From positions 21,812 to 85,811 of IMG/VR virus record IMGVR_UViG_3300000571_000003: DNA of 64,000 nucleotides. One strand, given 5' to 3'. The DNA comes from a virus (taxonomy: Duplodnaviria; Heunggongvirae; Uroviricota; Caudoviricetes). Made by a program: the position numbers and the translations under genes. The notes under the pieces were generated by a model. That model ran no database searches and had not been told where the DNA came from. It saw only the letters and a list, made by a program, of their open reading frames with translations. Positions 5,604-59,961 of the stretch are shown piece by piece; within the stretch, counting starts at the first letter, position 1, and every line of letters begins with the position of its first letter.

Positions 5604-8600
5604 TTATTTTTTCTTAGATAATGTATTCGCCATAAAATCTAAATCCATTTGCGATGTTGGTAAACCTGCGGTTGAAAATCCGGTTCTCATTGTTCTTGAT
5701 GCAGGATGTTCTTTTCTCTTCATTCCTTGAACATCCTCTCCACGAACTGCTCTTGCAAGACCTCTAAATCTATAACTTGGAACAGTCTCTATCGCTGCCT
5801 CTGATAATGGTGTTAAACCTGCTATTGCACCAGCTACCGCCAGAGGACCTGACGGTGTCAGAGCCTCACCTAATTGCCTTAAAGCATATCCGCTCTTCTC
5901 TAACGGTGTAGCCGTGGCTGGATATATCGGAGTACCGAATGAGCTTTGCGGTTGTTCTCCCTGAAGCAACATCGGTTGTATAATATTATCAAATATAACC
6001 TGTCCAACAGGATCCTTTAATAATGGTGAAGAATCTACCATTGATGTCATTCTATCAGGAAATTGATCTGAATACTTCCTACCGTTTTCTGTAAACATAT
6101 TAAAAGACAAATATGGAATCATATTTGTTACATTCAGATACAAAGGATTTTCTCTTGAGAATGGTAACTTAACCATTCCTGTCTGACTAAAATTTGTATA
6201 ATATCCCTGAAGCATTGCTTCCTTTTCTAATGGAGTTTTAGGACCAGATATCTCACTCATTAAAAAGTTTATTTTATTAAATACCGCAGGATTATATAAT
6301 GCAGACTCTATAGTTTTCGCACCCATACCATAGGAGAATGATGCGAACGGTGAGCCTAATATTGGCAATGATCTAAGTATCTTTACTGCAGCAGGCATAG
6401 CTGCGTAATTCATATATATAATACTAGAAAATTCTAATGCCTTTTCTGGTTTTAATCTATAGAGATATCTTCCGCCGCTCTTATATTTTTCTTCAATATC
6501 AGTATATTTCATTGGAATAGCTCTTGATATCTTAAGAAGTTCTCCCTCACTAAATCCATTTGTAATGGCATGTACGAATAGACCGAGTTTGTGAGATTGA
6601 TCTATACGCTCATATCCAGAAACTCCTTTATTTATTATTGCATCTATAGCCTTAGCGGCAAGATTTGTATTTTGATTACTCTCAGCCCAATTTTTTATTT
6701 TCAAATAATATTCACTATTACCATACATCTCTGCAGAAAAAGATGTTGGAAGTTCTTCACTTGAAATTTTACCTTCTTTTAAATCTTTTCTATATTTCTG
6801 TAACGGAGTACTCTTCATCTCACCCTTTAATTGTTTTAATTTTTTTATAAGATCTACAGCATTCAATGTAACACCTACTTCTTCGGCATTTTTCTTAGCC
6901 ATTTGTAATATTGCATCATCACTAAAACTTCTTTCATTAAGTCCTATTACTTTACCAAAAGTATTTTCATGTTCTTTTATAAAATTAAGAATATATGATG
7001 AAGAAGGGTTATCAGGTGGAAAATATTTTTTCATGAAATTAGCACCATTTCCTGTTAGGAAATCCCATGAATCTTTAATGGCGCTAAAATAAGAACGGCG
7101 TGTTATATCAACTCCAGCAAGAAACGCCATAGTAGGATTTCCTACTGCCGCATTAACAATCGCAGATGGACTCAAGGCATTAACCTTTGCACCCTTAAAG
7201 AAATTTATAAATCCAGAATATGCATCCAATGTATTCTTAACCCATGGTGTACCATTTTTTGTTTTTATCTCATTAAGCATTTTTACCTTTTCGTCATACC
7301 ACTTCAAACCAGTCTTTTCAGTATCAAAGTCTTTTGCAGCCATCCGAGCCTCATCAGTAAGTATTTTTACGAGATCCCTTTGTACATATGTTTCATTAGC
7401 CTCACCAAGCATCCTTTGTGAATTAGTTAAAGCATCTTCAGACCGTGTTATAGAAGATGGAGACTTTGCCGCCAATATACTCTCATCAACCATTTCAGAA
7501 AGTTTTCTAGCAGGAGCCTCTTGTACTCTCTGACCAAGTGGTGTATCTGGCATCATATCAGACATCGATCTTACTGGCTTATAATCTCCATAAATACCTG
7601 TTACCTCATCAAAAGCTTTTTTTACCTCTTCTTCATTCGTTGATATAACTTCACCGGTTACAGGATCTCTTACTATTTCTAATTTAGGAATCTTTTTTTC
7701 TCTTAAATTCTTTAATTTATCCTTTAATATTGCCTGTCTAAACCATACACCGGGATTCATATCAAATGCCTTTAAAAGAGACTCCCCATAAGGCAATTCC
7801 TCAACTTTTTCTCTAACTATATCCCCAAGCGAAAGATATGCCTGTTTTGCCTTATTCCAACCAGCTGGTTCTAATGATGCACGCTCATCTAATATGCCTT
7901 TAAGACTATTTTTCATTATATTTTGGTATTCATCAGTAGAAGAAATCGATTTTTCCTGCATTTGAGCTATTTTTTCCTTAAATTTACTTAATCCTAGTGC
8001 TTTTCTCTGCTCATCTGTAAGATTTCCTAACTTTAACCCTTCTTTTTCAATGGCTTTAACCGCATCATCTATGCCTTTTTGCCCAGAACCCGTTAATATA
8101 CGTGAAATAGTCGATGCTTTACCTAAAAAACCACTCTCTGCGCCCTTTAAAGCCCCTTTTGAACCTCCTTTTATCAATCCAGCCCCTATTCTAGGTATTA
8201 AAGCGCCAGTTCCTGCAGTTGCCCAGTTTACAGGGTCAAATGTAACATCCAACATAAAGCCTAAAGGAGCTGAAACATAGCCAGGAGCACCTACTTTACG
8301 TAAAACATCACCAAAATTCTCCTTAACAGTGAGGTTTCTAGACACATTCTGCCAACCTGGTACGGATCCTGTACCTGTAAGAGCCTGTACACCACCTACG
8401 ATCCCATGTAATGGAGCTGAAAGAGCCCCTAAACCCTTTTCTAATAGACCTTCATGCCGTTTACCTCCTCTTTCCTCTGGAGCCTTACCTTTTCCATACC
8501 ACTCAGCCTGTTTAACCTGGCTCTCAAGTACATCTTTTTGATTCTGTAGTTTCCTAATATTTATTTCAGATAACAAATCAGACCGTGTAGGGTTCTCAGT

Positions 8601-8720
8601 GTTTGTATATGCGGTAGGAGATTCACTTAAAGCAACTTCACTATATCCAAGACTTTTATTCAAATCAGAAATACGCTGAGACATTTGTTCAGGCGTTAAT
8701 TTTTCTTTAGATGCTGGCAT
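5604..8720 (-). CDS. large hypothetical protein (1038 aa), possibly virion/internal protein
   Basis: Long uninterrupted ORF with Gly/Ala-rich N-terminal third (GAGLIKGGSKGALKGAESGFLGKAST); upstream of terminase genes in same operon; no recognised catalytic motif. Confidence 0.55.
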   Translation of the reverse strand: MPASKEKLTPEQMSQRISDLNKSLGYSEVALSESPTAYTNTENPTRSDLLSEINIRKLQNQKDVLESQVKQAEWYGKGKAPEERGGKRHEGLLEKGLGALSAPLHGIVGGVQALTGTGSVPGWQNVSRNLTVKENFGDVLRKVGAPGYVSAPLGFMLDVTFDPVNWATAGTGALIPRIGAGLIKGGSKGALKGAESGFLGKASTISRILTGSGQKGIDDAVKAIEKEGLKLGNLTDEQRKALGLSKFKEKIAQMQEKSISSTDEYQNIMKNSLKGILDERASLEPAGWNKAKQAYLSLGDIVREKVEELPYGESLLKAFDMNPGVWFRQAILKDKLKNLREKKIPKLEIVRDPVTGEVISTNEEEVKKAFDEVTGIYGDYKPVRSMSDMMPDTPLGQRVQEAPARKLSEMVDESILAAKSPSSITRSEDALTNSQRMLGEANETYVQRDLVKILTDEARMAAKDFDTEKTGLKWYDEKVKMLNEIKTKNGTPWVKNTLDAYSGFINFFKGAKVNALSPSAIVNAAVGNPTMAFLAGVDITRRSYFSAIKDSWDFLTGNGANFMKKYFPPDNPSSSYILNFIKEHENTFGKVIGLNERSFSDDAILQMAKKNAEEVGVTLNAVDLIKKLKQLKGEMKSTPLQKYRKDLKEGKISSEELPTSFSAEMYGNSEYYLKIKNWAESNQNTNLAAKAIDAIINKGVSGYERIDQSHKLGLFVHAITNGFSEGELLKISRAIPMKYTDIEEKYKSGGRYLYRLKPEKALEFSSIIYMNYAAMPAAVKILRSLPILGSPFASFSYGMGAKTIESALYNPAVFNKINFLMSEISGPKTPLEKEAMLQGYYTNFSQTGMVKLPFSRENPLYLNVTNMIPYLSFNMFTENGRKYSDQFPDRMTSMVDSSPLLKDPVGQVIFDNIIQPMLLQGEQPQSSFGTPIYPATATPLEKSGYALRQLGEALTPSGPLAVAGAIAGLTPLSEAAIETVPSYRFRGLARAVRGEDVQGMKRKEHPASRTMRTGFSTAGLPTSQMDLDFMANTLSKKK

Positions 8721-9188: not shown

Positions 9189-9503
9189 TTACATATTAAA
9201 ATATTTCTTTAACTTATAATCAACCATAAACTTAATTGTTTTTTTAGAAGATATTTTTCTCAAAGAACCGGTTTTAACATCCCTCATAACCCTACCTTTA
9301 TGAACAGTTATAACAAAATCACCAAAATTAGGGAGCCTCACAACACCAGTTCTTTTAAGTTCCTGCACTATAACTTTAACCATTGAATAAAAAACATCCT
9401 TCACCAATTGTTCTTTAATATAGTTACATCTGAAAGATACAAGCTGAAAGAACTGATCAGCTTTTATATGATCCATCTTACTTGGTTTATGACTCCGTGC
9501 CAT
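9189..9503 (-). CDS. HU/IHF-family (histone-like) DNA-binding protein
   Basis: GVVRLPNFGDFVITVHKGRVMRDVKTGSLRKISSKKTIKFMV matches the HU beta-arm pattern (GFGxF...R.GRNP.TG..I.I......F). Confidence 0.55.
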   Translation of the reverse strand: MARSHKPSKMDHIKADQFFQLVSFRCNYIKEQLVKDVFYSMVKVIVQELKRTGVVRLPNFGDFVITVHKGRVMRDVKTGSLRKISSKKTIKFMVDYKLKKYFNM

Positions 9504-10553: not shown

Positions 10554-10775
10554 ATGTCTCAAAAGAAACTAATTTGTAGACTCTGCGATAAACCTTCAAC
10601 AGTCTCAACACTAGGAGTTATTAATCATTGGCGATGCATTAAGAAAGCACACAGCATTGAAGATGCAGCACTTCGCAAGTTAGCTAACAAGAAAGAATTT
10701 GGCGGTCGACCAAATCTCATGTCCTTACGCAGGGCGCAAAATAAAGCGTATGACACACTATTCAATCTTAACTAG
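10554..10775 (+). CDS. hypothetical protein
   Basis: 73-aa ORF, Cys pair near N-terminus. Confidence 0.4.
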   Translation: MSQKKLICRLCDKPSTVSTLGVINHWRCIKKAHSIEDAALRKLANKKEFGGRPNLMSLRRAQNKAYDTLFNLN

Positions 10776-10783
10776 AAATTCAT

Positions 10784-10927
10784 ATGACAAAAGAAGACTT
10801 ACGCCTACTCCAAAAACTTCTTGATAGATTCTATGCACTCCATGGTCTATCAGAAAATGATGATGATACCTATTCAGACATAAGCACAATGATAAGTGAT
10901 GTATTTAAACAAATTCATAATGAATAA
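10784..10927 (+). CDS. small acidic protein (47 aa), paralog of next gene
   Basis: ATG in AATTCATATGACA context; MTKEDLRLLQKLLDRFYALHGLSENDDD resembles MTKEELQKLRKDIAKFFSIYGMSDDDD of 10932..11096; below track length cutoff. Confidence 0.4.
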   Translation: MTKEDLRLLQKLLDRFYALHGLSENDDDTYSDISTMISDVFKQIHNE

Positions 10928-10931
10928 ATAT

Positions 10932-11096
10932 ATGACAAAAGAAGAGCTACAAAAGCTACGAAAAGACATAGCTAAATTCTTTTCAATATACGGCATGTCA
11001 GATGATGATGATGCATTATTTAAAGAAATGATGAGAACAGTCAAACAAGTATTAGAAGAATGTGGTGACGAAGACTTACCAACAATCAATAACTAA
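10932..11096 (+). CDS. small acidic protein, paralog of 10784..10927
   Basis: Track ORF 10896..11096 trimmed to ATG in AAATATATGACA context. Confidence 0.45.
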   Translation: MTKEELQKLRKDIAKFFSIYGMSDDDDALFKEMMRTVKQVLEECGDEDLPTINN

Positions 11097-11102
11097 AATC
11101 AT

Positions 11103-11312
11103 ATGACAAAGACAGAGATAAAAAGACATGTTGGACATGAAATTACAATTGCAAAATATGAAGACGACATAATCCATAATTACTCACTTGAATGTGAAAC
11201 ATGTAACGAAGTCTTAGAAAGCCATGAAACTGAATATAGAGACAAGGAACCACACGATAAAACATGCGAGTGTTTGAAATGTATTGGAAATACTAAGTAC
11301 GGAACTAAATAA
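11103..11312 (+). CDS. small zinc-ribbon-like protein
   Basis: 69-aa ORF with CETCNEV...CECLKC pairs. Confidence 0.45.
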   Translation: MTKTEIKRHVGHEITIAKYEDDIIHNYSLECETCNEVLESHETEYRDKEPHDKTCECLKCIGNTKYGTK

Positions 11313-11320
11313 AAAAAGAT

Positions 11321-11521
11321 ATGACAACAACACAAGCACAAACACTCATTGGCAAAAGAGCGATGGTATTCTACAACACGCTCACCTTTGAGGTAATAAT
11401 AAAAGACACAAAACAAGCATATGGAAGAACGCTTTACTTAATAGAACCTGTTAGTGGTTGCGGAACTACATGGGTATATAGCATAGCTCTTGATGTGTTC
11501 AGCGAAGCATTTGATTCTTAA
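11321..11521 (+). CDS. hypothetical protein
   Basis: 66-aa ORF, ATG in AAGATATGACA context. Confidence 0.4.
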   Translation: MTTTQAQTLIGKRAMVFYNTLTFEVIIKDTKQAYGRTLYLIEPVSGCGTTWVYSIALDVFSEAFDS

Positions 11522-11528
11522 TACTATT

Positions 11529-11549
11529 TTTTTGTTATTTTTTATCGCC
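11529..11549 (+). promoter_or_regulatory. 21-bp motif TAATACTATTTTTTTGTTATT (copy 3) followed by CCTTGGTCGGCGGGC
   Basis: Near-exact repeat of 10143/10247 motif; downstream CTTGGYCGRC also present after copy 1 (CTTGGCCGACAGCC). Confidence 0.3.
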
Positions 11550-11594
11550 TTGGTCGGCGGGCAAGAAGTATTTTATTTATTTAATTGTACACAT

Positions 11595-11843
11595 ATGAAA
11601 GTCAACATGGAGGACATCATTGATGATGTAGACTTAAGTATTTTTGATTGTGAAAGAATATTAAATGAGTTTGATTCTGAAAGAGAATATGCAACATCAG
11701 ATTATGATGAAGACATGGAATATTATCATATGATGATGGATCCTATAAGTGAATATGAAGGACTTGATGAAAATGAAAGCCTACAGGATTGTTTTAATAA
11801 AAGTATGCACATAAGCAATGTACCTTATGAACTTTATATTTAA
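11595..11843 (+). CDS. small acidic protein
   Basis: Track ORF 11490..11843 trimmed to internal ATG after motif; D/E-rich. Confidence 0.4.
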   Translation: MKVNMEDIIDDVDLSIFDCERILNEFDSEREYATSDYDEDMEYYHMMMDPISEYEGLDENESLQDCFNKSMHISNVPYELYI

Positions 11844-11854
11844 AGAATAAATAT

Positions 11855-12304
11855 ATGCCTTTTTACTGCCCAAATAATGGCTGTCATGAAGAGATAGAAT
11901 CTCTATTATATTCTGTAGGCGTAACAGAGTTTGGAAATTATTATATAGAAAGAGAAGATTGGGATACCGATGATACAGAAACAAGTGGGGAATATCGTTA
12001 TGAATGTCCAGAATGTAATAACGAACTTGATTTAAGTGAAGTACTCACTGAAAATCCAAACGAAGAGGATGAAGATGAAGATACGGAACATCCGCAAAGA
12101 GCAATAGAGAAAGCAGAACAAAACACTGAGGTTATAAACTTCTGCAATGAAGAAGCATTCACGCAAAAAGGAAGACAGAACATAGACATTATTAAATGCG
12201 AACGGTGTAGTCATATGTTCAGTGTAGAGGATAGAGACCTCACCAATCTTATTTGCACAAATTGCTCACATGCGATAAAGACTAAATTACCAATTAAAGT
12301 CTAA
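11855..12304 (+). CDS. acidic protein with multiple CxxC zinc-ribbon pairs
   Basis: CPNNGC, CPECNN, CERCSHM, CTNCSH pairs and a DEDEDTEHP acidic tract. Confidence 0.5.
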   Translation: MPFYCPNNGCHEEIESLLYSVGVTEFGNYYIEREDWDTDDTETSGEYRYECPECNNELDLSEVLTENPNEEDEDEDTEHPQRAIEKAEQNTEVINFCNEEAFTQKGRQNIDIIKCERCSHMFSVEDRDLTNLICTNCSHAIKTKLPIKV

Positions 12305-12308
12305 CAAT

Positions 12309-14021
12309 ATGAGACCATTTCCTTTTACAATAGGAGCAGATCCTGAGCTAAACTTCATATCTCAAGGACGAAAGGTAGATGCATGTTATACCATGAGAAA
12401 TCTACTGAAGAATGATGAAAAATTTAGCACTAATAGAGGACTTGTTATTGATGGAGCAGGAGATATTGGATGGGATGGATGTACTTCAACTGGAGAGTTG
12501 CGTCCTAACCCATCTGTAAGTCCTAAGAAACTCACAGAAAATATCGGAACACTCTTTAAAGAATTCTACAATCGCATCAACCTCTTTGACATGAGTACAT
12601 TATCATTTCACTCATCAATTGGAGGTCATCTTCATTTTCTATTGCCGAGTACAAAACCTACAGATACAACCATACGAAAGTGGCATCGTATCATGGCATC
12701 ATTCTATCTTCCTATCATGATGGGAGAAAATAAGATTAATCTTGAACTGAGAGCAAAAGGAAATTATGGAAAAATCAGCGATTATCATGCGAACAATGAG
12801 TTCACTCAAGAAGATGGAAGCAAAATAAAAACATATGAGTTCCGTGTGCCATCAGCAGAATGGATCACTCATCCAAAAATTTGCGAATCAGTCATCGCAT
12901 ATATGGGAGTAGTGTGGAATGAGATTACAAATAATTCACGAAGCGTAAATAAACACAAAGAACTTATTTATAAAACAGAAAAACAAGGAGAAGCATTGCA
13001 ACAACTCTTGGTGTCAGAATACACCTCACTCACAAAGAACATCTTCAAAGATATTCAGAAAGCTATCAAAACATTTGAATATTATGAAGATTATAAAGAT
13101 CAGATAGAATATGTACTTGACATAGATCAAGTTATGAAAGATAAGAAGAAGGTAAATTATAATATAGTAGAAGGATGGAATCTTGCACCAACAAAGAAAA
13201 CTACGAAGAGAGATATATTAAGTACAAAGAAATTCACGGAAAAATCTCTTGAAAAAAATCTTGATGAGAAAAGCCGTCTTATTAACATAAGTTATAACTC
13301 AGATCCAAACTGTGAAATCTTTGCCAATACACTTGCACAACGTTCTGTTGCATTCAATTGGAAATTAAACAAAACATATTTCCTCTTTGGATTAAGAAAA
13401 GGAATCAATAAACTCATGTCATTCAATCTCAAAAGTATGCCAATCACGGGACAAGAGATTATAGAAACTTCAGAAGACTTTGAGGCTGTTTCACAACTAT
13501 ATAGAAAGATGATTGATAGATACAGTGCAAATAACAGAGGACGATCTCCTATACGATTTGATTTTAACACTGGAGAAATTATACAAGAGAAAGAGAATAC
13601 AATTCTCATTGGCATTCCATATGAGATGAGAATGAAACAAGAGACTAAAGATTTCATTGACCTCGTATATGATATTGAAACAGATTCTAAGAAACCAACT
13701 ATGTGGAGTCAGCATCCTACTGTAGATGATAATAATTTTCCAGAAGAACAGAAAGGAAAGTTTTGGAAAGTAATGAATGGCAAAACAGAAGAAGTTATCA
13801 TGGCAGAAAATACTGAAACAGCAGCAAAGAATGTAGCAGAACTTATAGAAGAAAGAATAGCATTGCAAAGAGAGGAGCAGGAAAATCCGCTTTATAAAAC
13901 ATGGCCAAACTCATACGATACCCATGAAAAATATATCGAAGGATACCGAGCTTATCTCAACAATGCCGCAATAGACCTTGGACTTATAACAAGACCCACA
14001 GAGGGAGAAGCAATATCTTAA
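12309..14021 (+). CDS. large protein with putative GS-like amidoligase N-terminal domain (inference)
   Basis: 570-aa ORF directly upstream of a class-II GATase; N-terminal motifs GELRPNP, GGHLHF and EFRVP are compatible with glutamine-synthetase-fold carboxylate-amine ligases (Amidoligase_2/GCS2-like) but cannot be confirmed by eye. Confidence 0.35.
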   Translation: MRPFPFTIGADPELNFISQGRKVDACYTMRNLLKNDEKFSTNRGLVIDGAGDIGWDGCTSTGELRPNPSVSPKKLTENIGTLFKEFYNRINLFDMSTLSFHSSIGGHLHFLLPSTKPTDTTIRKWHRIMASFYLPIMMGENKINLELRAKGNYGKISDYHANNEFTQEDGSKIKTYEFRVPSAEWITHPKICESVIAYMGVVWNEITNNSRSVNKHKELIYKTEKQGEALQQLLVSEYTSLTKNIFKDIQKAIKTFEYYEDYKDQIEYVLDIDQVMKDKKKVNYNIVEGWNLAPTKKTTKRDILSTKKFTEKSLEKNLDEKSRLINISYNSDPNCEIFANTLAQRSVAFNWKLNKTYFLFGLRKGINKLMSFNLKSMPITGQEIIETSEDFEAVSQLYRKMIDRYSANNRGRSPIRFDFNTGEIIQEKENTILIGIPYEMRMKQETKDFIDLVYDIETDSKKPTMWSQHPTVDDNNFPEEQKGKFWKVMNGKTEEVIMAENTETAAKNVAELIEERIALQREEQENPLYKTWPNSYDTHEKYIEGYRAYLNNAAIDLGLITRPTEGEAIS

Positions 14022-14041
14022 TAACATAACCATATACAAAT

Positions 14042-15160
14042 ATGTGTGGAATTATTTGTGCGATTTCTAAAGACAAGACACCCGTGAATGGTTTTGTTAT
14101 AGACCAGTTTGAGGATCAGCAGAGCAGAGGAATAAAAGGCTTTGGTATCATAGATATAGACATGGAGACAAAAGAATACAAAATAAGCAGAGCAACAGAG
14201 CCAGCTAAGTTTATGTTTGACCTTCATAAGAAAGAATCATCAGCAATGATAGTTCATCACAGATATCCAACCTCTAGTCCGAACTTCATGAGCCAGACTC
14301 ATCCTATCTCTGTAGACAACGGTTCTCTCAAACATAAATATCTTGTGATACATAACGGTTGCATCTCAAATGATAAAACTCTTAAGAAAGAACACGAAGA
14401 ACTTGGCTTCATATATACAACGGACATAGATATAGTAGACCAATGGAAGAGAGAGGAGCAGAAGTTCAACGATTCAGAATGTCTCTCAATTGAGGTAGCA
14501 CGGTTTATAGAGAAACAATCAGAAGAGGTAGGAATCCTTGGCTCAGCAGCTTTCATCGCAGTACAGATAGATAAAAAGACAGATAAAATACAGAACATCT
14601 TCTTTGGACGAAACACCAACCCTCTCCATATGAGCTTTACAAGAGGCAAGCTACGACTGTCATCAGAGGGAGAGGGAGATGATATTAAGCCTAATGTTCT
14701 TTATTCATGGGATATGAAGGCGACAAACCTCAAAAAGAGAGATATGAAGTTCAAGACTATAGCTCCTGCTACCTATCAAACATATCAGCATCAGACTGCC
14801 ATTGGCTTTCAAGACAAAGGAAATCTTACAACTCATACAAGGGAGAACGACTACGCATATCCATATAGAGATGAGTCATATTATAAAGATATGCCGTGGG
14901 AAGATAAGGTAGATGATGAGGAGATAGAACAGATAGTAGAGTTCAGACAGGAAGAAGCCCAAAAAGAACTTGAAGATTTCTTTGACTACATAGCAGATTC
15001 AGAGTTAGCAATTACTGCTGACATAGAAAACACACTAAAAGACATAAGATCTATACTTCTTATAGCTAAGAGTGAGGCTGTAAAAGCACATCAAGATAGA
15101 GAGATGAATGAGGAATTAGAAATAGAAAATTATAATAAATCATATTCTCAAAGTGTATGA
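14042..15160 (+). CDS. class-II (Ntn) glutamine amidotransferase-like protein with acidic C-terminal extension
   Basis: N-terminus MCGI (catalytic Cys2 of Gn_AT_II enzymes such as PurF/GlmS/AsnB), then SRG..GFGI, HHRYPTS, HNGCISN, TDIDIV blocks; C-terminal ~170 aa D/E-rich. Confidence 0.65.
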   Translation: MCGIICAISKDKTPVNGFVIDQFEDQQSRGIKGFGIIDIDMETKEYKISRATEPAKFMFDLHKKESSAMIVHHRYPTSSPNFMSQTHPISVDNGSLKHKYLVIHNGCISNDKTLKKEHEELGFIYTTDIDIVDQWKREEQKFNDSECLSIEVARFIEKQSEEVGILGSAAFIAVQIDKKTDKIQNIFFGRNTNPLHMSFTRGKLRLSSEGEGDDIKPNVLYSWDMKATNLKKRDMKFKTIAPATYQTYQHQTAIGFQDKGNLTTHTRENDYAYPYRDESYYKDMPWEDKVDDEEIEQIVEFRQEEAQKELEDFFDYIADSELAITADIENTLKDIRSILLIAKSEAVKAHQDREMNEELEIENYNKSYSQSV

Positions 15161-15360
15161 AAAAATATAGAGTCTGTGCGTTCCTCACAAGTATTGAATG
15201 GCAAATAGTAGAAGCAGAGAACGAAGAGGATGCCCGCGAAAGGTACTATGCGGAAGAAGGAAAAGTTGACGACATAGATGTAACAGAGAGAGATATAGAC
15301 AGCATCAGAGAACTAGACGAAAATGGTGATTTTGTAGAAGACAGTTTGTCAACCACATAG
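15157..15360 (+). CDS. small acidic protein
   Basis: 67-aa ORF overlapping upstream stop (ATGA coupling); net highly negative. Confidence 0.45.
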   Translation: MKKYRVCAFLTSIEWQIVEAENEEDARERYYAEEGKVDDIDVTERDIDSIRELDENGDFVEDSLSTT

Positions 15361-15511
15361 TTGACAGAAACACACCCTCGTAGATATAAGGAAAAGTATA
15401 AAAATCCCTGGGATATTCTTTTTATGCATTTACGAGGGTTTCAAGCGGTTAGTTGACAGTTTTAAGAGAAAAGAGCTACCAAATAAGCTTATAAATATAA
15501 CGTTTTTTCTT

Positions 15512-16003
15512 ATGCAAAACCTACAACAATATATGACTGGTTTAAGACTACCCCAATATCCACAGTACCCAACCTCCCAAGAGATCATGGAAAAGCCTAT
15601 AAAACACCGCCTAGAAGCTATAGAAGCAATCAGAGGATGGAAGATAACAGACTACCCAGGGTGGAAAGATAAAGCCACTGGAGAGAAACTTTTGGCTCTG
15701 TATAGGCTCATAACAAGCCTGTCTATCGTATATAATAAGCCTGTGTGCGTTACAAATGGACATGAATACCACTACTCACCGCTCTCATCCACCATCATAC
15801 TAGACTCCAGAAACCCTTCAATCATAAGCACTCTGCATGAATTTGCACACCATATCAAAGGACCAAGTGAATCAAAGGCATGTAAATGGTCTGTGTGGCT
15901 ATTTAAGAAGGTATTTCCGAAGGCATTTGCAAAGTTAGAGTTTATTCCTAACAGTCATATGCTATGCAAAAGAAAAGTAAAGATAACATCACAGACCTCC
16001 TAA
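15512..16003 (+). CDS. zincin-like metallopeptidase (HExxH; SprT/IrrE-like)
   Basis: HEFAHH motif preceded by a CVTNGHEYHY region typical of SprT-like/WLM zincins. Confidence 0.45.
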   Translation: MQNLQQYMTGLRLPQYPQYPTSQEIMEKPIKHRLEAIEAIRGWKITDYPGWKDKATGEKLLALYRLITSLSIVYNKPVCVTNGHEYHYSPLSSTIILDSRNPSIISTLHEFAHHIKGPSESKACKWSVWLFKKVFPKAFAKLEFIPNSHMLCKRKVKITSQTS

Positions 16004-16218
16004 ATAGAGAGGATGAGTTCATACTCCTTCAGATACCAGGAAGCAAATATATGCTTGTTTGTAAGGAAAATCCACCAAAGAAGTGGTCTATAGAGATGAT
16101 AAATCCAGAGACTAATGAACACAGAACCATATGCCATGAAGAAGATGGAGACATATTTAAGAGTTTACTGTTCAACATATGGTCAATGAATCCTACAATA
16201 AGATATAAAAGGAGATAA
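15964..16218 (+). CDS. hypothetical protein
   Basis: 84-aa ORF followed by terminator. Confidence 0.4.
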   Translation: MQKKSKDNITDLLNREDEFILLQIPGSKYMLVCKENPPKKWSIEMINPETNEHRTICHEEDGDIFKSLLFNIWSMNPTIRYKRR

Positions 16219-16221
16219 ATA

Positions 16222-16257
16222 AAAGCCTATAGTCTAAAAAACTATAGGCTTTTTTTA
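16222..16257 (+). terminator. intrinsic terminator ending plus-strand early block
   Basis: AAAGCCTATAG-loop-CTATAGGCTTT followed by TTTTTT. Confidence 0.65.
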
Positions 16258-16443: not shown

Positions 16444-16549
16444 CACCGTGCACGGTGCCTCTACCCTCTACCCTCTACCCTCTACCCTCTACCCTCTACC
16501 CTCTACCCTCTACCCTCTACCCTCTATCCTCTATCCTCTATGAACTGCG
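16444..16549. repeat. 14-bp perfect palindrome CACCGTGCACGGTG followed by ~13 tandem copies of heptamer CTCTACC(/CTCTATC)
   Basis: Seen directly in the 660-bp non-coding convergent gap; track ORF 16455..16637 is merely the repeat translated (PLPSTLY x3). Confidence 0.85.
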
Positions 16550-16717
16550 CTCTATGAACCTCAAACTATCCACAATAAACAAACACTTGTTCTATAGCAC
16601 CATTCTACTATATAATAGAAAATGCCCAAAAATATAATGTTTTTTATTATTTGTCCCAAGCAAAAACTTTTTCTTGACACCCCATACACCCCATACATGG
16701 TAATATGATAAATTAAT

Positions 16718-17253: not shown

Positions 17254-17778
17254 CTATGACGTGACACCTGTCACTTTAATCTCTCCATCAACCATATCAA
17301 TAATAGCATACAAACTACTTATACCAAGAAACTCAGGTACATCGCTTACTAGAACCTTATGAATATTCACCTCAACCTCTAACTCCAATAGCTTCTCATA
17401 CTCCTGCATACTCCTATCTCTCTCTTTCAATACCTCATCATACTCCTTCTTCAACTCCATAAATTCTTCTTCCGCCTTTTTCTCATCAACAAATACAAAT
17501 AACCCGTCACGCTGTACTGGATTACCACTCTCATCCTTCTCTGCGTTCTTTCTTCCTAACTCCAATGATTTCTTCTTAAAATTACCGTACTCAACGCTTT
17601 CTTCGCTCGCCTTCGATAACGCCTGTACCTCTGGCAACAATACTCTCAAATTCTTTGCTACCGCATACTTAAACTTAATACTCAATTGCTCTCCCTCCTT
17701 ATTAACATCTGGATTCTCCAATACATTCAATGTATTAAATAGTGCTAAAATATCTTTTCTTTTCATACATTCATACAT
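17254..17778 (-). CDS. hypothetical protein (coiled-coil, K/E-rich)
   Basis: 174-aa ORF. Confidence 0.5.
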   Translation of the reverse strand: MYECMKRKDILALFNTLNVLENPDVNKEGEQLSIKFKYAVAKNLRVLLPEVQALSKASEESVEYGNFKKKSLELGRKNAEKDESGNPVQRDGLFVFVDEKKAEEEFMELKKEYDEVLKERDRSMQEYEKLLELEVEVNIHKVLVSDVPEFLGISSLYAIIDMVDGEIKVTGVTS

Positions 17779-17790
17779 TACATTAAATAA

Positions 17791-18792
17791 TTATAAATCC
17801 CAAATATTATCATTTCCAAATGCCCCCCACTCTGATGTTTTCCTGTATATTGGCTTCTTCAAATCCAAAAACTCTATAATTCCTTTTGGTGTGAGGTCAT
17901 ATTTACCATCAGCTCTACCCAAAACATTATAAGTACTTAACGATTCATCTTCATACCTCAAAACTGCCACTGCCTGCAATGGCTCTTTCTTCCCTATCGC
18001 ATAAGCAAGATGCACCGTACATTCCTTTGCCTCATAAAACTTCAAATAATCCACCGCAAGCTTACGTGCCATATATGCTCCACTGCGATCTACTTTAGAG
18101 GCATCTTTTCCAGATTGACATCCGCCTCCCACCTGCACTCTAGGCCCATAGGCATCTACCACAATCTTTCTTCCTGTAAGCCCTGTGTCTGCGTCAAATC
18201 CCCCTATATCCCATTTTCCTGCAGGATTTACATACCTGTAGCAATCATCTGCTATTCTTTTCTTTAACAGCCATCCATCTACAATTCCCAATAATTCACT
18301 TGAAACTACTCCGCACCATGAAGCTACAACCGCAACTATTTCTCCTTTTTTATTCACTGTTACCTGTGTTTTTCCATCATTCTCATGTATCGCATAAATA
18401 TATCTACATAAATCTCTGGCGAACACATATTCCAACGGCATGAGCTCTGGAGTGTCATTACAGGCATAACCTACCATGATACCTTGATCTCCAGCACCCC
18501 CTGTGTCAACGCCAGAAGCTATCTCAGGGCTTTGACGTGATAAGTTGACTTGCACACCATATTTCTCTCCAACGACGCTGTGGACGAGCTGTGGCACGTC
18601 TACGTAAGCCTTAGTGGTGAGCTCACCTGTCACCGTGATGATGCCGTGTCCGCCCATTGTCTCAACAGCAACACGAGAATCTGGATCTTGTCTTAAGCAC
18701 TCATCAAGGATTGCATCAGATATTTGGTCACAAATTTTGTCCGGATGTGCGGGAGAACAAAATTCCGCTGTTCTTAGCATATATTTTTCCAT
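17791..18792 (-). CDS. metK: S-adenosylmethionine synthetase (MetK homolog, short form)
   Basis: Signature blocks AHPDKICDQISDAILD, GGAGDQGIMVGYA, DTGLTGRKIVVDAYG, GGGCQSGKDASKVDRSGAYMAR, YAIG, KPIYRKTSEWGAFG match bacterial MetK motifs (GHPDK, GAGDQG, GGGAFSGKD). Confidence 0.85.
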   Translation of the reverse strand: MEKYMLRTAEFCSPAHPDKICDQISDAILDECLRQDPDSRVAVETMGGHGIITVTGELTTKAYVDVPQLVHSVVGEKYGVQVNLSRQSPEIASGVDTGGAGDQGIMVGYACNDTPELMPLEYVFARDLCRYIYAIHENDGKTQVTVNKKGEIVAVVASWCGVVSSELLGIVDGWLLKKRIADDCYRYVNPAGKWDIGGFDADTGLTGRKIVVDAYGPRVQVGGGCQSGKDASKVDRSGAYMARKLAVDYLKFYEAKECTVHLAYAIGKKEPLQAVAVLRYEDESLSTYNVLGRADGKYDLTPKGIIEFLDLKKPIYRKTSEWGAFGNDNIWDL

Positions 18793-19340
18793 TTAGTTTT
18801 AATAATTTTTCCTATTTCCTTCATCTCTTCAAATGTAAATATATTACTTTTGAAGGTATTGCAGAGACCGCAAGCCAATACTATATTGTTAATTTCATAA
18901 AAGAAATCACCGTTCATCCTATCTATCGTTAGTCTCTTGCCGTGCTTTCCATCATTCATTAATGAGACTTTTTCCTCTGGTACTCCACAATACACACATA
19001 TTTTTTCTTGAGCTTTATACCATAAGACAAACTCATCTCTAGATATAATAACATTTTTAACTCCACGCTTTATTAGACCCCGGTAAACCCCCCTGGGTGA
19101 TGCCGAGTATTTTTGTCTTATCTGCTTTCTCCTTACAGAATTTTTTGCAGTCCATTCTCTATTATACTTCGCATACTTTTCCTTATTATTTTTTCTATTT
19201 TTTACAGAAGCAGAATAGCAACACTCCCTACAAACAGTAGCAATACCATCCGTATTCTTTCTTGGATTCTTATAGACCCTAGAGGTCTTATAAAATTCCG
19301 TATTTTCTTTTTCTTTTAAACATTTTGTGCAAGTTCTCAT
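18774..19340 (-). CDS. HNH homing-endonuclease-like protein
   Basis: LTIDRMNGDFFYEINNIVLACGLCNTFK HNH core plus N-terminal Cys cluster. Confidence 0.5.
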   Translation of the reverse strand: MRTCTKCLKEKENTEFYKTSRVYKNPRKNTDGIATVCRECCYSASVKNRKNNKEKYAKYNREWTAKNSVRRKQIRQKYSASPRGVYRGLIKRGVKNVIISRDEFVLWYKAQEKICVYCGVPEEKVSLMNDGKHGKRLTIDRMNGDFFYEINNIVLACGLCNTFKSNIFTFEEMKEIGKIIKTKWKNIC

Positions 19341-19372
19341 ATATTATATTATACAAGAACAGACAAATTGTG

Positions 19373-19612
19373 TCAAATCTTCTCCCTTGGTAAAAACTCA
19401 TTCAATATCGCTATGTTCTCCTCCGTATGCTTCAGATTCCGAACGAACTTCCCGCACTTCGCACAATACGCCTGAATATGAAACGTGTAGAGCGGGACGA
19501 AGCTGTTTTGTTCGTGCAACCTCCGCATATTCTCACTCGTGAAGAACTTCACCTTTATGGCAAAGTCATTCATGCCTTCAGCGTCTCGGTAGTGGCAGGT
19601 ATCACATGTCAT
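19373..19612 (-). CDS. small Cys-containing hypothetical protein
   Basis: 79-aa ORF, CDTCH ... CAKCGK. Confidence 0.35.
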   Translation of the reverse strand: MTCDTCHYRDAEGMNDFAIKVKFFTSENMRRLHEQNSFVPLYTFHIQAYCAKCGKFVRNLKHTEENIAILNEFLPREKI

Positions 19613-19783
19613 AGGCTTTTACTCCTCGATAATAAAAGTTTTGTTATAGCCGAAGTAAAAAACATTCTACAGCTTCCACACTGACTGCGCCCATGGCCTT
19701 GCGACATAATACTTTTATGTTGGCATCTTTCAAAAATACCTCCCCTTTTTAGATCCTCTATGGTTATTTTTTTAAACATATTT

Positions 19784-20104
19784 TTATAAGTCCTTATTAT
19801 TATTATTTAATATTTCCCATAGGTCGTCGTAATCTTTCAATGGAATCTCCTTCCCATTCTTTGACGTTATCGTTCCCTTCTTCCACTTCTCGCCCCAATC
19901 AAGTTCCCACAAATAATAACCAATCCAATCACTATCATCATTCACCGCATCTTTCAATAAATCAACTACCATTTCTGTATATTTATCTATATGAAATCCT
20001 CCAAAATCAGTTGAAAACTTCTTTAAAGCAATATCAACCTCTTTCTCCGCATCTAATAGTTCCCTTAAATCTTTTAATGTCTTTATAAACAATTCTTTTT
20101 TCAT
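19784..20104 (-). CDS. hypothetical protein
   Basis: 106-aa ORF, stop/start overlap with neighbour. Confidence 0.45.
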   Translation of the reverse strand: MKKELFIKTLKDLRELLDAEKEVDIALKKFSTDFGGFHIDKYTEMVVDLLKDAVNDDSDWIGYYLWELDWGEKWKKGTITSKNGKEIPLKDYDDLWEILNNNNKDL

Positions 20105-20316
20105 ATATTAAATAATTTTTCTATTTTATTTACAAGCCACTTATAATTCATTCCACAGTTTTTGCAAAGAGGAACACCATTCACTTCTTCTAAATCCTCC
20201 TGAATACCTAATAAATAATCCTTTAACATAGCCCATGTCCAAAGAGATTCTTTATGACATTCACACATGCACCCTATTAATATGCAATCCTGATCACATA
20301 TCCTGCAAATGCCCAT
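20101..20316 (-). CDS. small Cys-rich protein
   Basis: CRICDQDCILIGCMCECH, CKNCG. Confidence 0.4.
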   Translation of the reverse strand: MGICRICDQDCILIGCMCECHKESLWTWAMLKDYLLGIQEDLEEVNGVPLCKNCGMNYKWLVNKIEKLFNI

Positions 20317-20322
20317 AGTAAT

Positions 20323-20517
20323 TTATTCCTCAATTATTATAAAAACGTCTTCAGACCACACTTCTTCAAACTTACCGTCTCTCTCTATCAAATACTTCTT
20401 TCCCTTAACATAATCACAATAGCCGTCTGGGAATTTTCCTTCTGTTGCCCCTATTATTGAAACAAGTTCATATTTATCCTCTCCGTCTTTTTTTACTCTT
20501 AGATATCCTTTCTTCAT
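20323..20517 (-). CDS. hypothetical protein
   Basis: 64-aa ORF. Confidence 0.4.
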   Translation of the reverse strand: MKKGYLRVKKDGEDKYELVSIIGATEGKFPDGYCDYVKGKKYLIERDGKFEEVWSEDVFIIIEE

Positions 20518-20699
20518 AAATTAATCATTGTATGGATTATCTTTAACCGTCTTTTTTATTCTACTAACTCTTTTATTCCCAAGAAAATTCTCAAATCTTT
20601 TCTTTATCTTATCACAAACTAAACAACCTTCTTGAAAATTCTCTAACGCAAGCTCATATATATGATCTGCATCATAAATAGATAAAGATATTCTCATGG

Positions 20700-21008
20700 C
20701 TATTTACCTTTATTCTTTATTTTTCCCTTTTTCTTTATCTCCTTCTTTTTCTTCTTTAAATCAACAACAAGTTCTTCCTCCTTTTTCTTCTCATCTCCAA
20801 CCTTTACTTCTTCACGCTCACTACTAGCCAATACAACACCAAAATTAAGGCTATTAAAGTCATAATTAAACCCTATAACACCATATTTATCCTGACACTG
20901 AAGTAAAAACGCTCTGAAACTCTCATCAATCCTATAAAATGCCGTTCCATCAGTCTTTATATACTTCGCAGGTATTGTAATATCAATGGCTATTAATTCT
21001 TTTTCCAT
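20700..21008 (-). CDS. hypothetical protein with Lys-rich tail
   Basis: C-terminus KKKKKEIKKKGKIKNKGK. Confidence 0.45.
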   Translation of the reverse strand: MEKELIAIDITIPAKYIKTDGTAFYRIDESFRAFLLQCQDKYGVIGFNYDFNSLNFGVVLASSEREEVKVGDEKKKEEELVVDLKKKKKEIKKKGKIKNKGK

Positions 21009-21017
21009 ATATTTTAT

Positions 21018-21230
21018 TTATTCTATCTTATGTCCTTTTTTAGAAAATGTTATATTTAAATTATCTTCTTTAAATTTATCATACGTTTCACCAAAATACT
21101 CTGCAACTTCAGTAAGAAGAATTTTCATAGCCTCACGTTCATCATCGTCGTATATAACGCTCTTAGTATTACCTTCACTGTGTTTTTGAAGAATAAAACC
21201 ATTATCACAAGACTCTATTGTTAATTTCAT
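21018..21230 (-). CDS. hypothetical protein
   Basis: 70-aa ORF. Confidence 0.45.
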   Translation of the reverse strand: MKLTIESCDNGFILQKHSEGNTKSVIYDDDEREAMKILLTEVAEYFGETYDKFKEDNLNITFSKKGHKIE

Positions 21231-21234
21231 ATAT

Positions 21235-21645
21235 TTATTTATAAAAATTTTTTATCCAATCAATAAATGATTCTTTTGTTAATTCAACATCATTATATAC
21301 TCCTTTTGTATCACCTCTTGTATCACCTCCTACTCCACCTACTTCTGAAAGCTTTCTACTTAAATCACTATTCTTTTTATTTTCCTCTTTTATTTTTATC
21401 TCCTCTTCTTGTTTTCTCTTATTCTCAATTATTTTTTTATTTAATTTATCTTCAAGATCTGCTAATGATATACCGACTTTCATATAAAATAAAACCCTAT
21501 CGCAAATAAATTTTTCATGAGCATAATATCTGACAACAAAATTAGAATTACTCAAACCATTATTAACTAACCGTATATCAATACCGTTGTCTCTATGTAA
21601 TCTTCTTACAATCTTTTCATATTTTTCTAATTCATATATGTTCAT
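21235..21645 (-). CDS. hypothetical protein
   Basis: 136-aa ORF overlapping helicase stop. Confidence 0.5.
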   Translation of the reverse strand: MNIYELEKYEKIVRRLHRDNGIDIRLVNNGLSNSNFVVRYYAHEKFICDRVLFYMKVGISLADLEDKLNKKIIENKRKQEEEIKIKEENKKNSDLSRKLSEVGGVGGDTRGDTKGVYNDVELTKESFIDWIKNFYK

Positions 21646-57992: not shown

Positions 57993-58032
57993 ATTGTTAT
58001 TATTTATATCGCGTTAGATTGTGTAGACATTT

Positions 58033-59958: not shown

Positions 59959-59961
59959 ATT

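Follow-up and report, generated by a model that had tools for sequence, protein, structure and literature searches.

Gene content of the locus

The window analysed here, a 64,000-nucleotide stretch of the IMG/VR virus record IMGVR_UViG_3300000571_000003, carries a compact gene block on its + strand. A carboxylate-amine ligase ORF of 570 aa (12309-14021) is followed, after a gap of 20 nt, by an ORF of 372 aa with the N-terminus MCGIICA, encoding a class-II glutamine-amidotransferase-type protein (GAT-II; 14042-15160), then by an acidic ORF of 67 aa (15157-15360) and by a small, basic zincin-like metallopeptidase of 163 aa (15512-16003), with HEFAHH at residues 109-114. Upstream of the ligase lies an acidic, double zinc-ribbon protein of 149 aa (11855..12304, + strand), with an acidic linker between its two CxxC...CxxC ribbons, and the zincin gene is followed by that of an 84-aa protein to which no function was assigned (15964..16218, + strand). 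A consensus scan placed a terminator-like hairpin with a 15-bp stem (16221..16253, no strand) 3 nt past the stop codon of the 84-aa ORF, where it closes the + strand gene block. A sigma-70 promoter scan performed no better than on shuffled sequence, and no Rfam families or tRNAs were found in the window. For the ligase, GAT-II, the 67-aa ORF and the zincin, the coordinates, the + strand and the motifs quoted in a first-pass annotation were confirmed, with the ligase motifs falling on invariant columns of a 95-sequence family alignment.

The carboxylate-amine ligase

The 570-aa protein matched PF14395 (COOH-NH2_lig) in Pfam over residues 60-272 (43.3 bits, cutoff 25; E 3.4e-11), in line with its initial description as a glutamine-synthetase-fold amidoligase, and PF14395 was present in all 120 ligase homologues among the matches listed. 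The catalytic domain (residues 1-285; 12309..13163, + strand) is GS/GCL/PafA-like and has the glutamine-synthetase/glutamate-cysteine-ligase fold. E13, E63, R65, H107, H109, E177 and R179 are invariant in the 95-sequence family alignment, by which these putative catalytic residues were placed; the motif GELRPNP contains E63/R65, GGHLHF contains G105/G106/H107/H109 and EFRVP contains E177/R179/P181. The ligase-family profile had no significant match among solved-structure sequences, and tblastn of the ligase, a short-form ligase and the zincin against 50,697 deposited phage genomes gave no match.

The remainder of the ligase (13164..14021, + strand) comprises a C-terminal alpha/beta domain (residues about 286-500) and an acidic tail. 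This domain is probably a fused copy of a stand-alone ORF of ~150 aa that follows short-form PF14395 ligases in other phages; LUZ24 gp17 did not match it. A mention of an amidoligase in the Klebsiella fimbriae literature concerns an ATP-grasp enzyme and was set aside as irrelevant. PADLOC gave no match for any of the four cassette-region proteins, and a viral fold library returned a single, uncharacterised match.

The class-II glutamine amidotransferase-type protein

Residues 1-228 of GAT-II (14042..14725, + strand) form a class-II (Ntn) glutamine-amidotransferase-type domain that starts with MCGI, and residues 229-372 (14726..15160, + strand) form an acidic tail; no synthase domain is fused to the protein. 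The class had been proposed from the N-terminus, and the similarity reaches past it: the NCBIfam GlmS model NF001484 matches residues 1-211 (E 8.7e-12), the PurF model matches with E 1.6e-6, and the GAT-II family profile recovered solved structures of PurF (E 4.9e-8, residues 1-128, aligned from Cys1) and GlmS (E about 7e-5 to 3e-4), while Pfam GATase_6 scored 23.1 bits, under its cutoff of 27. The nearest relatives are the glutaminase domains of the true amidotransferases GlmS, PurF and AsnB, not proteins of the GATase_4 type. A tblastn search of the 50,697 deposited phage genomes with GAT-II yielded only one distant glmS match.

M1, C2 and G3 are invariant in the alignment of 38 homologues, as are R74 (HHR.PT), N105-G106 (HNG) and D144 (NDSE), and the HxR.PT and HNG blocks align with PurF. 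From GlmS and PurF, we take C2 to be the nucleophile, R74 the alpha-carboxylate ligand, N105-G106 the oxyanion hole and D144 the alpha-amino ligand; retention of all these residues implies that the substrate presents a free glutamyl head group. The tail is acidic, as annotated at the outset (net charge -15 in the window; family median -14), and consists of a variable Tyr/Asp/Glu-rich linker and a conserved segment near the C-terminus (L..F.D.L.D ... I...L).

These features bear on the possibility that the ligase and GAT-II are the two subunits of a glutamine-dependent amidotransferase, in which GAT-II would channel ammonia from glutamine to the ligase (R-COOH -> R-CONH2). The substrate could be a Glu, Asp or mDAP carboxylate in a peptidoglycan precursor or a protein, prepared or trimmed by the zincin. 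Amidotransferases of class II or class I are well known to amidate peptidoglycan (LtsA/AsnB1, MurT/GatD). Invariance of all glutaminase residues, the closeness in sequence to the GlmS, PurF and AsnB glutaminase domains and the 1:1 pairing of strictly adjacent ligase and GAT genes favor this arrangement, and the conserved tail segment and the extra ligase domain could form a docking interface. To our knowledge, however, no GS/GCL-fold ligase takes ammonia from a GATase partner.

A zincin of an undescribed family

The 163-aa protein contains HExxH at residues 109-113, Glu120, Cys124 and an N-terminal YPT. The zincin motif is HEFAHHIKGPSE, with an invariant E120 at +7 and no conserved His at +6, whereas SprT and WLM proteins are recognised by HExxH and a third His six residues past the second His. 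Thus, of the SprT/IrrE-like zincin proposed earlier, the HExxH zincin stands, and the affiliation is not supported by sequence: neither the +6 His nor a profile match to SprT/WLM or to IrrE/ImmA (Peptidase_M78) was found. Searches of Pfam at E up to 1 produced no zincin or peptidase family, the sole match (Lyx_isomer, E 0.27) being noise; PHROGs, NCBIfam and PADLOC gave no match, and the zincin-family profile had no significant match among solved-structure sequences. The protein is a member of an undescribed family, which is large (832 clusters at 50% identity) and whose diverse alignment was too divergent to serve as the seed for a metagenome scan. In its HExxH helix after a three-stranded sheet, its second helix with an acidic ligand candidate, its small size and its basic charge, the zincin appears to resemble the minimal zincins SprT/Spartan, Wss1/WLM, minigluzincins, HtpX and CapP.

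Conservation of the cassette and its companions

The order ligase, GAT-II, zincin on one strand was found in all 10 ligase-anchored loci, down to 29% ligase identity, and zincin-anchored metagenome loci contained GAT-II in 47 of 51 cases and the ligase in 33 of 35. Altogether, the cassette is kept in nearly all of the about 90 related metagenomic loci examined. Two neighbors named in the first-pass annotation do not belong to it. The small acidic protein exists as the 67-aa ORF, but this ORF recurs in only one of 90 related loci (L030, the closest relative) and the GAT-II ORF is directly followed by the zincin ORF in other relatives; it is a lineage-specific insertion outside the conserved cassette. 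Likewise, a phage MetK is indeed encoded nearby (17791-18792), but on the opposite, convergent strand, and it is neither conserved near the cassette in relatives nor linked to it.

Of 44 loci in which 600 bp or more precede the ligase, 36 encode a homologue of the zinc-ribbon protein, mostly directly or within about 1 kb upstream of the ligase gene and in two loci (L009, L074) directly downstream of the zincin. This family has a median net charge of -18, and the Pfam zinc-ribbon matches of the 149-aa protein were all sub-threshold. The acidic zinc-ribbon protein is a possible cassette partner or substrate. A LysW-like carrier role was dropped, given that the C-terminus is neither conserved nor acidic; the LysW Pfam match (E 0.35) was noise. 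Homologues of the 84-aa protein directly follow the zincin in 50 of the 74 related loci with enough downstream DNA, and neither this protein nor two of its homologues matched a Pfam family.

The window phage is a metagenome-only relative of SU10/phiEco32-type podophages. The only matches in the genome collection were contigs of phage type that had been placed in MAGs of CPR, DPANN and Marinimicrobia, and we therefore assign no host. Part of the linkage is shared descent, because the loci come largely from one phage family. Conceivably, the genes adjoin only for this reason and have no joint function: most loci represent one lineage, relatives share a large 1038-aa protein and HU upstream of the cassette, and the window phage carries SU10-type structural genes. 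Nevertheless, the order persists at ligase identities as low as 29% although the early region is otherwise plastic, the pairing of ligase and GAT-II recurs in unrelated phages (such as LUZ24 and the classical loci), and in phages of 57-68% GC the zincin is found next to another ligase family. We consider the lack of any joint function highly improbable.

Exchange of partners around the zincin

Where PF14395 and the GlmS-like GAT are lacking, the zincin family has other partners, namely, Amidoligase_2 and GGACT (L054), Amidoligase_2 and GATase_4 (L057), Amidoligase_2 (L119/L120) or GGACT alone (L068). GAT-II and gamma-glutamyl cyclotransferase appear to be interchangeable. Given that GGACT cleaves only gamma-glutamyl-amines and cannot donate ammonia, this interchange points to cleavage of gamma-glutamyl amides, and the peptidase, as the constant third partner, points to a peptide-like substrate. 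In high-GC phages, the association of the zincin with Amidoligase_2 and either GATase_4 or a gamma-glutamyl cyclotransferase suggests that the chemistry concerns gamma-glutamyl amides of a peptide-like target and not the transfer of ammonia.

For the two-subunit amidotransferase, occupation of the GAT-II slot in the zincin sister systems by a gamma-glutamyl cyclotransferase, which supplies no ammonia, is difficult to accommodate, and the RimK-like and GGCT enzymes of LUZ24 point to glutamyl peptides. Conversely, peptidoglycan amidation by such an amidotransferase would fit the published prediction for phage amidoligase systems, cell-wall modification that excludes superinfection (cited in PMC10580990 and PMC11318856); peptide and metabolite synthesis has also been predicted. 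All considered, we regard the amidotransferase as a serious but rather unlikely alternative.

DNA base modification

Covalent modification of phage DNA bases had been raised as plausible at first pass; a modified base would then carry a side chain assembled or amidated by the ligase and GAT-II. In viral metagenomes, thymidine-hypermodification clusters are reported to co-occur with domains of amidoligases and glutamine amidotransferases (Lee et al. 2021, PMC8989533), a MetK and a class I methyltransferase are encoded in the window, and the ligase domains and the zincin are basic. Against this, no dUMP/dCMP hydroxymethylase, 5-HMUDK, aGPT-Pplase, DpdA/TGT or TET/JBP was found in the precomputed Pfam hits for about 73 of 87 kb (positions about 12.8-86.3 kb of the identical 87.4-kb contig), where divergent enzymes could escape because many genes have no Pfam match. 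The reading is therefore not supported. Furthermore, MetK is encoded on the opposite strand and is not kept beside the cassette in relatives, the partner that stays constant is a peptidase, and the sister systems have GGACT or RimK-like enzymes instead of nucleotide enzymes. We accordingly judge DNA hypermodification to be very unlikely.

Proposed function

The folds, the conservation of the catalytic residues and the gene linkage are directly supported. We tentatively favor, as the best current reading, a minimal conserved module of SU10/phiEco32-like podophages that makes and processes gamma-glutamyl-type amide links on a peptide-like target; its glutamyl chemistry, its target and the direction in which each reaction runs are what we infer. 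The ligase would convert a carboxylate into an acyl-phosphate at the expense of ATP and then join it to an amine. The carboxylate would most likely be the gamma-carboxylate of glutamate, by analogy with all characterised members of the fold (GS, GCL/YbdK, PafA and gamma-glutamyl-amine synthetases). GAT-II, which keeps the ligands for a free glutamyl group, would handle the same moiety, either hydrolysing gamma-glutamyl-X or drawing on glutamine, and the zincin would cleave the peptide or protein part of the substrate for maturation or release. The target could be a protein of the host or of the phage, with the acidic zinc-ribbon protein among the candidates, or a stem peptide of peptidoglycan. 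Against the gamma-glutamyl reading, GAT-II, with GlmS, PurF and AsnB as its nearest relatives, could be an ammonia donor, and if one and the same bond were made by the ligase and broken by the hydrolase, a futile cycle would result unless the zincin step intervenes.

A more specific version, which we put forward as an unlikely idea, is a new type of tag-free protein modification, in which amines of a host or phage protein would be reversibly gamma-glutamylated with free glutamate and the mark erased or processed by the zincin and the Ntn hydrolase (GGACT in the sister systems), with the zinc-ribbon protein as adaptor or substrate. If true, this would be an analogue of pupylation used early in infection for host takeover or counter-defence. 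Alternatively, the ligase could gamma-glutamylate a free amine, such as a polyamine or an amino acid, with GAT-II later removing the glutamyl group, so that host metabolite pools would be rewired; the zincin would then have a function of its own or a small peptide as its substrate. PuuA, GmaS and GCL gamma-glutamylate free amines in this way. However, the module includes no intervening modifying enzyme, and the linkage of the zincin, as tight as that of GAT and maintained across ligase families, is hard to explain by such a small-molecule route, which seems to us decidedly unlikely.

Many phages, among them LUZ24-like phages of Pseudomonas as well as marine and gut phages, encode an amidoligase together with GAT-II, and such pairs have been annotated since 2009, the usual explanation by the cell wall and superinfection being a prediction repeated by citation. 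The window contains the simplest version seen here, in which a single ligase is joined by a single Ntn hydrolase and a small zincin. The comparison adds two constraints, the constancy of an undescribed zincin family across two ligase families and the apparent interchangeability of GAT-II and gamma-glutamyl cyclotransferase, and both suggest that gamma-glutamyl amides of a peptide-like substrate are involved. If confirmed, the cassette would define an enzymatic activity not previously described, which phages employ early in infection and which, should it act on a protein or the cell wall, would amount to a new way of manipulating the host.

Comparison with known systems

In 2009, Iyer, Abhiman, Burroughs and Aravind reportedly predicted the amidoligase systems (PF14395, PF12224) of phages such as phiEco32 and LUZ24. 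The cassette is a variant of the system predicted in 2009, and its original link to amidoligase and GAT-II neighborhoods of comparative genomics was correct. As in the window, the PF14395 ligase of phiEco32/LUZ24-type systems adjoins a class-II Ntn GATase in the phage early/replication region, and the GAT domain of LUZ24 gp19 is homologous to the window GAT-II (hhalign probability 94%). These systems add Amidoligase_2, a RimK-like ATP-grasp enzyme, a gamma-glutamyl cyclotransferase and, often, a second Ntn protein (GATase_4). LUZ24 combines the PF14395 ligase, an amidoligase, GAT-II, a RimK-like ATP-grasp enzyme and a gamma-glutamyl cyclotransferase; Amidoligase_2, ATP-grasp and/or gamma-glutamyl cyclotransferase occur in the LUZ24 and L017 blocks, whereas the block in the window includes no second ligase, second Ntn protein, ATP-grasp enzyme or gamma-glutamyl cyclotransferase, and the precomputed Pfam hits for the window show no second ligase, ATP-grasp enzyme or gamma-glutamyl cyclotransferase. 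Amidoligases are also paired with gamma-glutamyl cyclotransferase in Clostridium prophages (PMC11318856). The window differs by its long ligase with a fused domain, its GlmS/PurF-like GAT with an acidic tail and its zincin, which was found neither in the LUZ24 region (A2 profile) nor in a scan of eight classical loci with short-form ligases (L013-L017, L019-L021). Our literature search found no biochemical characterisation of any member of the ligase, GAT-II or zincin families.

Compared with pupylation (PafA/Dop), the cassette has no Pup-like tag, and its hydrolytic partner is an Ntn GAT-II and not a Dop paralogue. The sole small acidic ORF (67 aa) ends in STT, without a C-terminal Gln/Glu, and is not conserved, and the zinc-ribbon protein has no conserved acidic C-terminus. 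Moreover, the alpha-amino and alpha-carboxylate ligands of GAT-II suggest a free glutamyl group and not a protein C-terminus. In the gamma-glutamylation pathways of EgtA/EgtC and PuuA/PuuD, as in the cassette, a ligase of the same superfamily is coupled to an amidohydrolase that recognises a glutamyl head group; EgtC is a class-II Ntn protein. Those pathways act on small molecules and employ enzymes between ligation and hydrolysis, whereas the only other enzyme of the cassette is a peptidase-like zincin and its GAT-II is not of the GATase_4/EgtC type.

Genomic context of the cassette

The cassette lies in a run of plus-strand genes spanning positions 10554 to 16218, bordered on the 5′ side by a divergent intergenic region and closed by a hairpin whose stem measures 15 bp (16221-16253). 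All four ORFs that the first-pass annotation had grouped into one module are present on this strand: the ligase (12309-14021; 570 aa), the class-II Ntn glutamine-amidotransferase-type protein (GAT-II; 14042-15160; 372 aa; N-terminus MCGIICA), an acidic ORF whose start overlaps the GAT-II stop codon (15157-15360; 67 aa) and the zincin (15512-16003; 163 aa; HEFAHH at residues 109-114). Also on the plus strand, the run includes an acidic double zinc-ribbon protein (11855-12304) and, directly 3′ of the zincin, a member of a family of ~84-100-aa proteins (15964-16218). The convergent intergenic region between the plus- and minus-strand blocks contains a heptamer microsatellite, (CCTCTAC) x 11.9 with 98% matches (16458-16540), of which a spurious “PLPSTLY” ORF (16455-16637) is the product.

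An 87.4-kb metagenomic contig contains the identical sequence of the window, and our gene-content survey covers about 73 of the 87 kb. Its genes for the portal, major capsid and adaptor give matches to Pfam families of the SU10 type, which makes the phage distantly related to the phiEco32/SU10 podophages, from whose group Pfam family PF14395 takes its name. No close counterparts of the ligase, GAT-II or zincin were found in deposited phage genomes. Four phage-like, cassette-bearing contigs (L112-L115) had been binned into MAGs named Neomarinimicrobiota, Shapirobacteria, Paceibacterota and Aenigmatarchaeota; the probable explanation is that phage DNA was co-binned with small genomes of low GC, and the bins provide no host evidence.

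MetK (17791-18792; SAM synthetase, phrog_1569, E 9.5e-96), the proximity of which had been considered meaningful, is located together with an HNH/endonuclease VII gene on the minus strand, past the convergent gap, and these two genes are not conserved near the cassette in the ligase-anchored loci compared. The accompanying proposal of DNA-base hypermodification has a single point in its favor, a general remark in PMC8989533, and no companion pathway genes were found among the Pfam matches for the about 73 of 87 kb examined; we consider this explanation highly improbable.

Elsewhere in the window, a class I SAM methyltransferase (Methyltransf_11/25; 45454-46071, plus strand) is, like MetK, unlinked to the cassette, and a Band_7 (SPFH/stomatin-like) protein (31589-32431, plus strand) is encoded among the replication-region genes. 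Intein signatures were detected in a 924-aa protein adjoining the SU10-type portal gene (1144-3918, minus strand; weak Intein_splicing and LAGLIDADG_3 matches) and in a 921-aa SNF2 helicase (21642-24407, minus strand), where an Intein_splicing match splits the SNF2 domain. Homing-endonuclease-type genes are unusually dense, with several LAGLIDADG_1/2/3 ORFs that separate the portal gene from the major capsid gene, in contig DNA immediately left of the window (17422-21641 of the fetched locus L110), and HNH/endonuclease VII and HNH_3/AP2 ORFs at 18774-19340, 26357-27241 and 32473-33054. A GC spike (0.457 vs about 0.33 elsewhere; 58001-60000) coincides with a 641-aa tail-associated gene (58033-59958; weak Gly_rich_2 match; phrog_863, tail fibre assembly).

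Conserved linkage of the ligase, GAT-II and zincin genes

In ligase-anchored loci, down to 29% ligase identity, the ligase, GAT-II and zincin are encoded on one strand, with the order kept in 8 of 10, the other two being circularly permuted contigs with the zincin at the contig start. Among 80 zincin-anchored metagenome loci, GAT-II is directly upstream of the zincin in 47 of the 51 with enough upstream DNA (38 by automatic count and 9 in which its stop-to-stop segment overlaps that of the zincin), and a long ligase precedes GAT-II in 33 of 35. The 67-aa acidic ORF was found again only in the closest relative and, on this ground, does not belong to the module to which it had been assigned.

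Three further companions, none with a Pfam family, recur around the cassette. Homologs of the zinc-ribbon protein are present in 36 of the 44 related loci with enough upstream DNA, usually immediately 5′ of the ligase and in two loci immediately 3′ of the zincin. The ~84-100-aa protein directly follows the zincin in 50 loci. Next in order comes a ~150-aa coiled-coil protein, which occurs in 56 loci but is missing from the window; two database proteins are fusions of it with the zincin. The charges are complementary, with pI values of about 9 for the ligase domains and 9.5 for the zincin, against net charges of -14 for the GAT-II tail and -18 for the zinc-ribbon protein.

Farther upstream, an HU-like DNA-binding protein (9189-9503, minus strand; weak HU-HIG match) and a 1038-aa protein (5604-8720) are conserved together in three related loci (L007, L009 and L012). 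In two contigs with 27% GC (L064, 729-1905; L112, 1960-3139), a ~208-aa ligase fragment is followed directly by the zincin without GAT-II; the second ligase fragment that L064 carries in a different frame points to a frameshift or to decay.

The ligase

The amidoligase assignment held: residues 60-272 match PF14395 (phage phiEco32-like COOH-NH2 ligase type 2) with 43.3 bits, where the cutoff is 25 bits. A large protein collection yielded 198 relatives; among the matches listed, PF14395 was detected in every one, and most are 530-600 aa long, share 37-57% identity and, in many cases, come from 85-102 kb contigs. In an alignment of 95 sequences, D11, P12, E13, E63, R65, H107, H109, E177, R179, P181, E184 and W185 are invariant, positions with which the motifs quoted in the first-pass annotation coincide, and so are N330, D332, Y357, G361, P437, Y438 and R441 in the C-terminal half.

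Aligned lengths of 210-274 residues approximate the size of the N-terminal domain, and the C-terminal alpha/beta domain (about residues 286-500) had no clear match by structure or by sequence. Short PF14395 ligases of distant phages (about 285-320 aa) are in every case followed by a ~150-aa ORF, the profile of which could be aligned to long-form residues 327-459 (hhalign E 2.8e-4, probability 41%), with the FN..Y.FGLR and I.IG...R motifs in register. This alignment moderately supports the reading of the long ligase as a fusion of the short ligase with the ~150-aa ORF.

The GAT-II protein

Similarity of GAT-II to glutamine amidotransferases extends well past the N-terminus. NCBIfam gave matches to GlmS (E 8.7e-12, residues 1-211), PurF (1.6e-6) and AsnB (4.5e-4), and the family profile retrieved PurF and GlmS glutaminase domains among solved-structure sequences (4.9e-8 to 3e-4), aligned from Cys1; Pfam GATase_6 by itself stayed slightly below threshold (23.1 vs 27 bits). 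Among 38 homologs, C2, R74, N105, G106, D144 and several more residues are invariant; by analogy with GlmS and PurF, we take C2 to be the nucleophile, R74 the alpha-carboxylate ligand, N105-G106 the oxyanion hole and D144 the alpha-amino ligand for glutamine. With these ligands retained, the substrate should carry a free glutamyl head group, as in glutamine or a gamma-glutamyl-X compound. In the acidic tail described earlier (residues 229-372; net charge -15 in the window, family median -14), a variable Tyr/Asp/Glu-rich linker is followed by a conserved acidic segment.

The ligase and GAT-II could together form a two-subunit glutamine-dependent amidotransferase that converts a carboxylate to a carboxamide. 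This possibility, the main alternative to the mechanism preferred below, is favored by how close the window GAT-II is to genuine amidotransferases, by its strictly one-to-one pairing with the ligase and by the tail as a possible docking element; it also agrees with peptidoglycan amidation precedents and a published cell-wall prediction found in passages of PMC10580990 and PMC11318856.

The zincin

Searches of Pfam, PHROGs, NCBIfam and PADLOC, and of 50,697 deposited phage genomes, gave no match for this 163-aa protein. Its family comprises 832 clusters at 50% identity (E up to 1e-3), 552 of these below 1e-10, and nearly all members are 130-170 aa long. In 57 diverse members, S103, H109, E110, H113, E120, A123 and S127 are invariant, and C124 and the N-terminal motif (M)YPT[KR]EEIL nearly so. 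The HExxH zincin-like character noted at first was retained; in sequence the protein matches neither SprT nor IrrE, and it appears to represent a separate, undescribed family. Gamma-glutamylation of a small molecule, which would give no account of the zincin, seems to us quite unlikely.

Predicted function and comparison with known amidoligase systems

Zincin loci lacking the PF14395 ligase and the GlmS-like GAT have 57-68% GC and encode other amidoligase machinery beside the zincin: Amidoligase_2 (121 bits) and a gamma-glutamyl cyclotransferase (GGACT/AIG2) in L054, Amidoligase_2 (132 bits) and a GATase_4 Ntn protein in L057, GGACT directly upstream of the zincin in L068, and Amidoligase_2 (67 bits) in L119/L120. 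In phage LUZ24, the PF14395 ligase occurs together with an Amidoligase_2 protein, a RimK-like ATP-grasp protein, a gamma-glutamyl cyclotransferase and a GAT-II that is a homolog of the one in the window (hhalign probability 94%), and locus L017 carries two Amidoligase_2, two GATase_4, a PF14395 ligase and the ~150-aa ORF. In Clostridium prophages, amidoligases are paired with gamma-glutamyl cyclotransferase (PMC11318856). From these combinations we conclude that phage amidoligase systems have the zincin as a third partner even where the ligase and glutamyl-handling enzyme types are both swapped, with GAT-II and GGACT apparently occupying one slot.

GGACT cleaves gamma-glutamyl-amines and cannot supply ammonia. 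Its interchange with GAT-II argues against the two-subunit amidotransferase, which we regard as somewhat unlikely. To our knowledge, every characterized enzyme with the ligase fold activates glutamate, free or at the Pup C-terminus, at its gamma-carboxylate, which is then linked to an amine or to ammonia. The folds, residue conservation and linkage were observed here; that the chemistry is glutamyl, which way each step runs and what kind of target is modified are inferred. In the mechanism that we tentatively prefer, the ligase would use an amine of a peptide-like target to form an amide of the gamma-glutamyl type, GAT-II would hydrolyze such a bond or otherwise handle the glutamyl moiety, and the zincin would cut the peptide part, resulting in maturation or release.

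Systems of this kind were predicted by comparative genomics in 2009, as cited in passages of PMC10580990 and PMC11318856, and no characterization was found in the literature searched. The classical multi-ligase system of LUZ24 uses the same enzyme vocabulary as the exceptional zincin loci; the novel elements are a minimal architecture of three enzymes, the fusion in the ligase, a GlmS-like GAT that ends in an acidic tail, and a large zincin family as the constant partner.
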